Shown: positions 3,858-5,253, counted from the stretch's first letter. The stretch: 64,000 nucleotides of DNA from an uncultured Planctomycetaceae bacterium (GCA_963813715.1 CAWFAK010000008.1:64001-128000); one strand, 5' to 3'. A program made the numbers and translations. The notes: a model not told the origin generated them from the letters alone.

Positions 3858-3998
3858 AAGTCTTCGATCTCCTACCTAGCCGCGTCCCAATCAATCCCGT
3901 CCCGACATTTGTCCCGTCCCGCTCGAGTCCCGTCCCATTCTTTCCCCTCGCCCGTCCGGCTCGGCGGATGGGAGAGCGGCTGTGTTTCTTTTCAAGAG

Positions 3999-4952
3999 TT
4001 AAGTGGTTGAGATTGCGGGGTTCCAGTGCGTTTTGTTTTTGACCATCGTGTTGAGGATCACCAGCAGCTTGCGCATGCAGGCGGTGATGATGACCTTGGG
4101 CTTTTTGCCGAGGGCTTTCAAGCGATCCGAGAAGGCTCTGATGACTGGGTTGGAGCGTCGTGCGCTGAGCGTCGCCATGTACAGGCTACAGCGCACCGAA
4201 CTTCGGCCGCCGCGGATCGCGCGGCGTCCTCGGAACTCGCCGCTATCGCGATTGAAGGGGGCGAGGCCGACGAGTGCGGAGATTTTTCGTCGACTCAGCT
4301 GCCCCAACTCGGGGACCTCGGCGATCAGGGTGGCACTCGTGCCCGGTCCAATCCCCGGCGCGCTTTGAACAATCTCGGCCTTCTGTTTCCACTCGTCGTC
4401 CGATTGGACCAGCGCGGCGATTCGCTTCTCGAAGCGTCGGATTTGCTTGGTGAGCGCGTCGACGCTCTCCTGAAGGCTCTTTTTAACAAACTTGCTGGCG
4501 ACGTTTTCTTTGCGGTTCATTTCGGCGGTTCGCAGCTCGACGAGCTGCCGGCGGCGGACGACGAGGTCTTGCAGTTCGAGCTGTTTTTCCGGGATTTTGG
4601 TCTGGGTCCGCGGCACGACGGCCTGCCCGAAGCGTGCCAGCACGGCCGCGTCGATCCGATCGGTCTTGGCGAGGATTCCGCAGGCTTTGGCGAAGTCGCG
4701 GACTTGTCGGGGGTTGACGACCGCAACCTGATGGCCCGCGTCGATCAGTTCGGCGACGAGGGCCCGCTCGTAACCGCCGGTCGCTTCCACGACGATCAAA
4801 CACTCTCCGGGAGGAGGAAGCTTCTCTCGGAGTTGCTGGCGGCCCTTGGAATCGTTTGGCGGCTTGAGCGACGTTCGCTCAGGCAGCACGTGCACGTCGA
4901 GGGTCCGTTTGGCGATGTCGATACCGACGAACGATTTAAAGGCGACGTCCAT
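3999..4952 (-). CDS. IS110 DEDD recombinase/transposase
   Basis: [30 protein letters not shown] motifs; start MDVAFK preceded by a GGGA RBS-like sequence. Confidence 0.95.
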
Positions 4953-4957
4953 GACGA

Positions 4958-5178
4958 TGTCCCGTCCTTGCGAATGCGAGCTCGAGCGGCGACTGGCGCC
5001 CCGACGGCTCTGACGGCTGTTCGGGCTGATCTCATGAGACCGGCGGCGATCCAGCTCTCCCACGGTCTTCTTGGACCTGAGGGCGGACGATCTACCGCCG
5101 GCCGCCGTGGGGAACCTTGCTCCGCTACGCTTCGCAAGCTTCCCCACGGTCGTCTCCATCAAATGCGCCGATTCACCT
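4958..5178 (-). ncRNA. Predicted IS110 bridge RNA
   Basis: 5' hairpin 5105-5149, target-binding loop 5040-5101, donor-binding loop 4961-5025; guide segments match the element's donor junction and target. Confidence 0.8.
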
Positions 5179-5253
5179 TTTTTCAACATACAAGGGTCGG
5201 GGTGAGCGCCAATTTCTCCGGGCTTTTCTCGATGAAACAACGTGTCCCGTCCC

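Follow-up and report, generated by a model that had tools for sequence, protein, structure and literature searches.

Does the minus strand at positions 3975–5194 of a 64,000-nucleotide stretch of DNA from an uncultured Planctomycetaceae bacterium (GCA_963813715.1 CAWFAK010000008.1:64001-128000; hereafter, the window) hold a complete mobile element guided by an RNA of its own, and what selects the sites at which this element inserts? An initial annotation, made by a model, had read the locus as an IS110 element with a bridge RNA apparently programmed against a repetitive extragenic palindromic (REP) repeat. The window lies in the genome of a soil planctomycete (7.49 Mb in 18 contigs), and all counts of copies and sites given below cover that genome. 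We conclude that the window element is very probably a complete IS110-group copy that moves by RNA-guided recombination as does IS621 of Escherichia coli. This reading is carried by the limits common to all copies of the element, by empty target sites in the same genome, by a left-end RNA fold with compensatory changes, and by covariation between guides and DNA in relatives.

Limits, copies and recombinase of the element

The element measures 1,220 bp with the dinucleotide CT at both ends, or 1,218 bp plus one duplicated CT core, and its main parts are the following.

3975–5194, minus strand: whole IS110-family element; 9/9 genome copies align over 1–1220 with identical ends
5188–5194, minus strand: left end, composed of the left core CT (5194–5193) and the right donor TGTAT (5192–5188); from sequence reading and copies
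3975–3983, minus strand: right end, composed of the left donor ACAGCCG (3983–3977) and the right core CT (3976–3975); from sequence reading and copies
3999–4952, minus strand: recombinase gene, 317 aa and stop, with DEDD RuvC-like and Tnp domains; from Pfam, alignment and structure match

Directly beyond the right core CT lies the flank ctccc (3974–3970, minus strand), and direct reading of the two ends shows that they are not inverted repeats of each other. A blastn search found nine copies in the genome, each aligning over exactly positions 1–1220 with an identity of 94.2–100% to the window copy. All nine start with CTTGTATG and finish with ACAGCCGCT, followed by ctccc, so that the CT-bounded limits proposed in the initial annotation recur without deviation in every copy. 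CT stands at both ends in 9/9 copies and is single in the empty sites; the left-end sequence CTTGTAT is kept in most relatives.

The sole sensible long frame of the element (4952–3999) encodes an N-terminal DEDD RuvC-like domain (PF01548; E, 6.4e-26; residues 9–150) and a C-terminal Tnp domain (PF02371; E, 2.1e-17; residues 193–274). In an alignment with seven relatives of 40–92% identity, D12, E56, D98, D101, and S237 are invariant, a DEDD-plus-serine set that is expected from the accessible text of the IS621 structure paper (PMC11208158); judging from the spacing, S237 is likely equivalent to S241 of IS621. Among solved structures, the best-scoring relative is ISCro4 (IS622; PDB ID, 9t56; E, 4.8e-42 over residues 7–306), which is distant and was compared by protein only, and IS621 (PDB ID, 8wt6 and others), likewise a DEDD and Tnp recombinase of the IS110 group, matches with an E-value of 5.4e-42. 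Both domains, the catalytic residues, and the CT core without terminal inverted repeats make the element a member of the IS110 family, as initially assigned, and the position of the guide RNA upstream of the gene places it in the IS110 group. The IS1111 group with its seekRNA has the same protein family and RNA-guided logic, whereas its guide RNA lies downstream of the gene. The recombinase had also been called intact, which holds for the window copy and two others (C5:1086648 and C16:393479), in which the full 317-aa frame is kept, but not for the other 6/9 copies, which are frameshifted.

Left-end RNA and its guides

The non-coding left end upstream of the recombinase gene comprises 240 nt, and the 243-nt leader folds better than its shuffles (z = −3.15). 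Its layout is a 5′ stem-loop (5149–5105) followed by two stem-closed, hairpin-capped internal loops (5103–5038 and 5025–4961), in which the guides are arranged as follows.

5105–5149, minus strand: 5′ stem-loop of the non-coding RNA (CCGUGGGGAAGCUUGC ... GCAAGGUUCCCCACGG); from the fold
5038–5103, minus strand: target-binding loop module with basal stem, internal loop, and GGUC/GACC cap hairpin (5077–5064); from model and covariation
5080–5088, minus strand: left target guide GUCCGCCCU, ending in the core CU; imperfect match to the left target CCCGRCC+CT
5055–5061, minus strand: right target guide GGGAGAG; exact reverse complement of CT+CTCCC (7/7), the right flank being ctccc in 9/9 copies
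5053–5054, minus strand: handshake guide of the target loop (C, U); C (5054) can pair with donor position 7, the G of ACAGCCG
4961–5025, minus strand: donor-binding loop module with CCCG/CGGG basal stem, internal loop, and GAGC...GCUC cap; from model and covariation (helices 3–5)
5013–5020, minus strand: left donor guide ACAGCCG(U), with ACAGCCG at 5020–5014; identical to ACAGCCG (3983–3977) at the right end of the element
4967–4975, minus strand: right donor guide AUUCGCAAG, 9 nt; discontiguous pairing with CTTGTAT (AU / UC skipped / G·T / CAAG)
4965–4966, minus strand: handshake guide of the donor loop (G, A); G (4966) can pair with target position 7 (C)

The positions assigned in the initial annotation all hold on the minus strand, namely CT at 5194–5193 with TGTAT, ACAGCCG at 3983–3977 and again at 5020–5014, TCCGCCCT at 5087–5080, GGGAGAG, the GGTC/GACC hairpin at 5077–5064, and GCAAG at 4971–4967.

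A covariance model of the two-loop part (R1) was built from five Planctomycetaceae sequences with the guide loops left open, and searched against 89 loci of relatives from genome and metagenome collections. A match was found just upstream of the recombinase gene in 83/89 loci, full-length except in L053 (cut at the contig start) and L108 (target-binding loop part only); of the six other loci, two are Cupriavidus contigs that stayed below threshold and four are contigs having less than ~105 nt of upstream sequence. In the window's genome, R1 detects exactly the nine copies, each with 174–183 bits. Standard pairs occupy 95.2% of the cells in the R1 alignment, as compared with 73.2% in column shuffles and 31–51% with the partners slid by 1–3 columns, and double-sided changes are seen in 29/34 pairs among 80 distinct relatives (in the target-loop module, 13/14 pairs of helix 1 and 3/4 pairs of helix 2). 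The alignment was fitted to R1 and hence favors the structure; judging by the slid controls and by how many pair types occur, the helices are nonetheless secure. Among the genome's own copies, two pairs of the 5′ stem change on both sides (C:G to U:A and G:C to A:U), and double changes also occur in the stem of the first (target) loop. An architecture of the bridge-RNA type, with the 5′ stem-loop, target loop, and donor loop described for IS621, is thus supported by fold and compensatory changes, in agreement with the initial annotation.

In the course of this modeling, RNAalifold on five close relatives paired both target guides together, and that part was replaced by an open loop in the model; a MAFFT alignment of the whole leader misaligned the donor loops of distant relatives and was superseded by the model-based alignment (A4). 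An extra R1 match on the minus strand of L007 (E, 0.0026) was left out as spurious. Four loci (L010, L016, L019, and L029; Vampirovibrio and Cupriavidus), whose donor loops were misplaced in the model alignment, were excluded from the counts. Manual entries were made for the window, L014, L019, and L029 in the tests of the right and left target guides, and only for the window and L014 in the handshake test.

The guide rules of IS621 were taken from the accessible text of Durrant et al. 2024 (PMC11208160) and Hiraizumi et al. 2024 (PMC11208158). According to these parts of the two papers, each left guide has the sequence of the top strand as far as the end of the core, each right guide is complementary to the top strand beginning with the core, and the one or two handshake bases that follow a right guide pair with position 6–7 of the other DNA. 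The right donor guide of IS621 spreads 9 nt over 7 bases by flipping out two of its own bases and uses a G·T pair, in the order of A157–U158 paired, U159–U160 flipped out, G161·dT12, and C162–G165 (PMC11208158, accessible text). The window element fits every one of these rules, although the left target guide does so imperfectly. The eighth base of the left donor guide is U in the window, whereas it is the core C in IS621; among relatives, C is found in 66/81 rows and T in 7.

Covariation of the guides with target and donor was then examined in the homologues. The right ends of relatives were located solely by the left donor guide followed by CT, with 0–1 mismatch, downstream of the gene; this located ends in 72/83 rows, representing 59 distinct lineages, and the end variants include ACAGCCG, ACAGTTG, ACAGTCG, ACGGTTG, and ACAGCTA. 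The sequence next to the located ends validates this search: the right target guide is complementary to the next 5 bases at 5/5 positions in 42 of the 59 lineages, at 4/5 in 10, and at fewer in 7, with a mean of 4.53 as against 1.58 ± 0.14 after permutation (maximum, 2.15 in 2,000 permutations) and 47 different 5-mers. Per position, 50, 50, 50, 42, and 46 of 53 are complementary, and positions 6–8 are at chance (9, 15, and 16 of 53). The right target guide of this clade is therefore 7 nt long, comprising the core and exactly five covarying positions, after which covariation stops; a 7-nt guide had been put forward initially as a possibility. Some orthologues with right guides longer than that of IS621 were already noted by Durrant et al. 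(PMC11208160, accessible text). For the left target guide, the mean over 52 lineages is 6.79/9, as against 4.81 ± 0.13 after permutation. The first handshake base forms a Watson–Crick pair in 59/61 lineages for the target loop with the donor and in 46/51 lineages for the donor loop with the target, these counts including rare A–T and T–A cases; the second base is without signal (18/61 and 9/51, respectively). Guides, targets, and donors thus covary far outside the permutations, as the bridge-RNA reading had led one to expect.

A scan of 3500–5700 against Rfam 15 (E up to 10) gave no match to a bridge-RNA family. The best Rfam match is the Xanthomonas small RNA (sRNA) sX15 on the plus strand at 4965–5118, antisense to the bridge RNA, with 27.8 bits against a gathering threshold of 55 (E, 0.05); the sX15-aligned part covers the complement of the conserved donor-loop motif CCCGAACAG. 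The accessible part of the original paper places sX15 and its antisense partner asX7 on a plasmid and counts 10 homologues in the chromosome of a Stenotrophomonas. This weak match, taken as a lead, raises the possibility that the sX15 family of Rfam corresponds to an IS110 left end read from its antisense strand.

Target repeat and site choice

The insertion site lies at the foot of an imperfect hairpin in a modular dispersed repeat, which flanks the window copy on both sides.

5195–5206, minus strand: left target flank ctcaccccgacc, part of the REP-like repeat; from copies, empty sites, and blastn coverage
3944–3974, minus strand: right target flank ctccc (3974–3970) and the rest of the repeat's imperfect hairpin, with its right arm cggacgggcgagggg (3958–3944); from copies and empty sites

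The empty target that the initial annotation had predicted exists in the genome. The sequence CACCCCG[AG]CC-CT-CTCCC is present in 16 exact copies, and in 30 if one mismatch is allowed, as compared with ~0.005 expected per variant from base composition. Its context is always alike (gccct...CTCTCCC-loop-GGGMGAGGG), and the hairpin partner GGGNGAGGG is found within 40 nt in 16 of the 17 empty REP-type sites. As judged by blastn coverage, the target module is present in ~30 copies and the adjoining GGGACGGGACACGTTGTTT module in ~72. Since the repeat is short, dispersed, intergenic, and imperfectly palindromic, 'REP-like' is a fair and safe name for it. The proposed targeting of a REP repeat applies to 8/9 insertions. 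These lie in the repeat, directly after ...ctcaccccgRcc (three of them differing by a single C more or fewer); the remaining one has a different left context. The length of the left flanks varies (cccgacc, cccggcc, ccggccc, ccccgac, and ccgtccc), and the right flank is constant.

The genome contains 735 CT-CTCCC sites, of which nine are the right ends of the element's own copies; 17 empty sites have a REP-type left side. This left context accompanies ~3% of the CT-CTCCC sites but 8/9 insertions (P = 1.4e-11, computed with 25/744; 25/735 is the better figure, since the 735 sites already include the nine occupied right ends), and the right guide alone therefore cannot explain the site choice. 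Either the partial left pairing is sufficient, or a shift in register lets the left guide pair, or the context of the hairpin gives help. The match of the left target guide had been described initially as imperfect and dependent on wobble pairs, and so it is: 7/9 positions can pair if U·G and G·T wobbles are allowed, and a perfect left guide for the window's target would read CCCGACCCU. The window's left-guide allele is present in 8/9 genome copies and in 4/5 copies of a related metagenome-assembled genome (MAG), and the insertions were therefore probably made with this allele.

The ninth copy (C16:392260–393479; L116), which has an intact frame, is flanked on the left by an inverted GGGACGGGAC module (gtgtcccgtccc-CT) and on the right by ctccc, and looks like an off-target insertion carried by the right guide. 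The same site type, CTCACCC(C/T)(G/A)ACC-CT-CTCCC, is used with better-matched left guides by several distant IS110 lineages on metagenome contigs with 45–56% protein identity (L036, L050, L068, L110, L080, L062, and L101), and appears to be targeted widely by IS110 elements of soil bacteria.

A dispersed module, GGGACGGGACACGTTGTTTCACCGAGAAA(A)GCCC, occurs in the window at 5210–5253, 3712–3755, and ~6700–6760, with ~72 blastn matches genome-wide. It is often situated just upstream of the target hairpin module, and is translated by chance in several spurious open reading frames (…FLGETTCPVP…). The IS110 element is adjoined by a gene for a DDE_Tnp_1 (IS4-type) transposase of 423 aa (PF01609; E, 5.8e-24) at 5352–6623 on the minus strand, with only the repeat module at ~5210–5253 in between; this stretch looks like a landing zone for mobile elements.

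Proposed cycle, alternatives and related systems

By analogy with IS621, excision of the element would yield a circle that links the right end ACAGCCG-CT to the left end TGTAT. The circle junction would join two promoter-like hexamers and lead to transcription of the ~220-nt left-end RNA.

5185–5190, minus strand: TATGTT, predicted −10-like hexamer, facing the right-end TTGAAA only in a circle or tandem junction
3990–3995, minus strand: TTGAAA, −35-like hexamer located in the right end, where it overlaps the region of the stop codon; from the junction scan

The donor loop would then read the circle junction and the target loop the insertion site, with GUCCGCCCU pairing imperfectly with the bottom strand of CCCGRCC-CT. 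The serine/DEDD recombinase would exchange strands at the CT core, preferentially at the foot of the hairpin in the dispersed REP-like repeat, leaving the element flanked by CT on both sides. The circle, its junction promoter, the transcription, and present-day activity are our inference; no promoter-like site was found in the integrated arrangement of the element. In one RNA-library contig, a joint of 3974 to 5193 skips 1,218 bases (3975–5192) with 2 ambiguous letters, and the empty-site joint in run X7 may come from a paralogous repeat copy; contigs and joints of the sequencing runs were not taken as evidence either way. Two copy pairs lie in tandem in the same orientation (C5:1206700–1209468 and C16:500666–503780 of genome G000; loci L113 and L115), 331 and 677 bp apart. 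Such tandem direct repeats with donor-like ends could be substrates for RNA-guided excision or composite mobilization.

Several observations weigh against the reading of a complete element moving by RNA-guided recombination. Frameshifting indels are present in 6/9 copies as separate 1–3-base indels, each at its own place. The copy at C5:1086648 has flanks nearly identical to those of L001 in a related MAG, so that this insertion looks shared and older than the split of the two genomes, and some copies therefore old. The sole perfect 14-nt match to both target guides (C5 599015–599028; L118 1516–1529, minus strand), located in a lower-GC intergenic stretch outside any repeat (~0.29 such sites expected by chance), is unoccupied. 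The joints listed for contigs from three RNA-library runs and one DNA run include no circle junction, and the predicted junction promoter (TTGAAA–17 nt–TATGTT) has only 9/12 consensus matches, by sigma-70 rules that may not be those of Planctomycetes. The window's left target guide GUCCGCCCU shares only 5/9 identities with CCCGACC+CT, a value of 5 or less being found in 10/52 lineages, and the Rfam scan yielded no bridge-RNA family. It is possible, though not likely, that the copies form a decaying relic family in this genome, which no longer moves and whose RNA and guides are fossils of past activity: besides the scattered frameshifts, the apparently orthologous insertion, the empty perfect site, and the missing circle junction, even the closest copies are 99.4% identical (pairwise identity, 93.9–99.4%, with no two identical), and the window copy shares no more than 98.4% identity with any of the others. 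However, the full 317-aa frame and all catalytic residues are kept in 3/9 copies including the window's, all nine RNAs retain their high R1 scores, and the frameshifts may reflect either decay or long-read assembly error. Element-length contigs also occur in metatranscriptome libraries of several studies, where DNA carry-over is possible, leaving them without bearing on transcription. We regard it as scarcely credible that the upstream region is a mere 5′ untranslated leader or attenuator of the recombinase gene with guide-like matches due to chance. Such a leader would fit with the absence of an Rfam family match and with the overlap of the 3′ side of the donor loop, including its handshake guide, with an AAGGA ribosome-binding-like motif 12 nt before the ATG, but would have no reason to track DNA outside the element, and three separate guide segments covary with the flanks and ends far outside the permutations; mislocation of the right ends is argued against by the chance-level positions 6–8 and by the permutations.

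Within the RNA-guided reading, we consider it doubtful that the site is set mainly by the 7-nt right guide together with the REP-like hairpin shape or context, the left guide pairing by 3–4 core-proximal bases and for the rest in a shifted register, a bulge of one or two DNA bases separating CCCG from CCCT. The constancy of the right flank CTCCC in 9/9 sites, while the left flanks vary in length, is consistent with this arrangement, as is the insufficiency of the right guide alone (REP-type sites being ~3% of the CT-CTCCC sites). By our own reading, the left guide UCCG-CCCU fits CCCG(R)CCCT if one base is skipped, and L110 aims at the same site with GCCGACCCU (8/9), as if the window's guide had lost the A. 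Against this stand the lack of experimental or structural support for a bulged left-target duplex, and the poor tolerance of IS621 to mismatches in the nine non-core positions (PMC11208160, accessible text); moreover, the REP-type enrichment could come from partial left-guide pairing alone. A target stem-loop is reported, in the accessible description, as a second layer of specificity for ISPpu10, but that stem-loop is a 5′ extension of the target, whereas the hairpin here is on the right-target side, starting at the right target.

A sister lineage with 86% nucleotide identity (L014, L008, and L015; MAG MFD00964.bin.3.253) carries the right guide GGGTGAG and is inserted at CT-CACCC in 3/3 sites; this is the previous CT of the same repeat unit, 10–12 bp upstream. 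L008 and L015 are without left ends, and the gene of L014 is interrupted after 24 codons. We put forward, as an unlikely extension, that a degenerate, register-shifted left guide works, with specificity residing in the 7-nt right guide and the REP hairpin context, and that sister lineages were re-aimed at the neighboring CT by the single right-guide change of GGGAGAG to GGGTGAG, the left guide drifting to match. If true, these loci would be a natural record of stepwise bridge-RNA reprogramming and of left-guide mismatch tolerance in vivo.

As far as the accessible text of the two IS621 papers goes, the window element shares with IS621 the left-end RNA with its 5′ stem-loop, target loop, and donor loop, the CT core, the right donor CT-TGTAT, the 9-nt right donor guide skipping two bases with a G·T pair, and the handshake bases after each right guide. 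The IS621 donor given in the initial annotation (ACAGTAT-CT-TGTAT) agrees with that text at the positions that the text covers, 6–7 (A, T) and 8–14 (C, T, T, G, T, A, T) (PMC11208158). The two elements differ in the left donor (ACAGCCG in the window; A, T at positions 6–7 in IS621; PMC11208158), in the target (CCCGRCC-CT-CTCCC and ATCAGGC-CT-AC, respectively; PMC11208160), in the length of the right target guide (7 and 4 nt), in the length of the RNA (~220 nt with a longer 5′ part, and 177 nt), and in the host. A blastn search (distant mode) of the element against E. coli genomes gave no match, and IS621 was compared through the text of the papers and the PDB match. REP sequences are reportedly the natural targets of IS621, as a REP-like repeat is of the window element. 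ISPpu9 and ISPpu10 of Pseudomonas putida (IS110 family), compared by their accessible descriptions only, are likewise multi-copy and inserted in repetitive extragenic palindromes, and differ in host and repeat.

A full-text literature search found no publication on IS110 bridge RNAs in Planctomycetes, and a 34-nt stretch of the window RNA had no match in the readable part of the supplements of Durrant et al. 2024, which hold 31 'Planctomyc' rows. Because publications already describe bridge RNAs, the targeting of REP sequences, and long right target guides, the element counts as a new member within a known class and not as a new kind of system. With CT cores, handshake bases, and right guides longer than that of IS621 also in print, it adds little to the biology of the class. 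It does provide a natural data set, consisting of nine occupied and 17 empty REP-type sites in one genome, a related MAG with the same guide, and a sister lineage aimed at the next CT of the same repeat. The ~60 lineages give a position-wise map of guide lengths for the clade (7-nt right guide, 9-nt left guide, and one handshake base), and the tolerated left-guide mismatch could inform off-target rules for bridge-recombinase editing tools.

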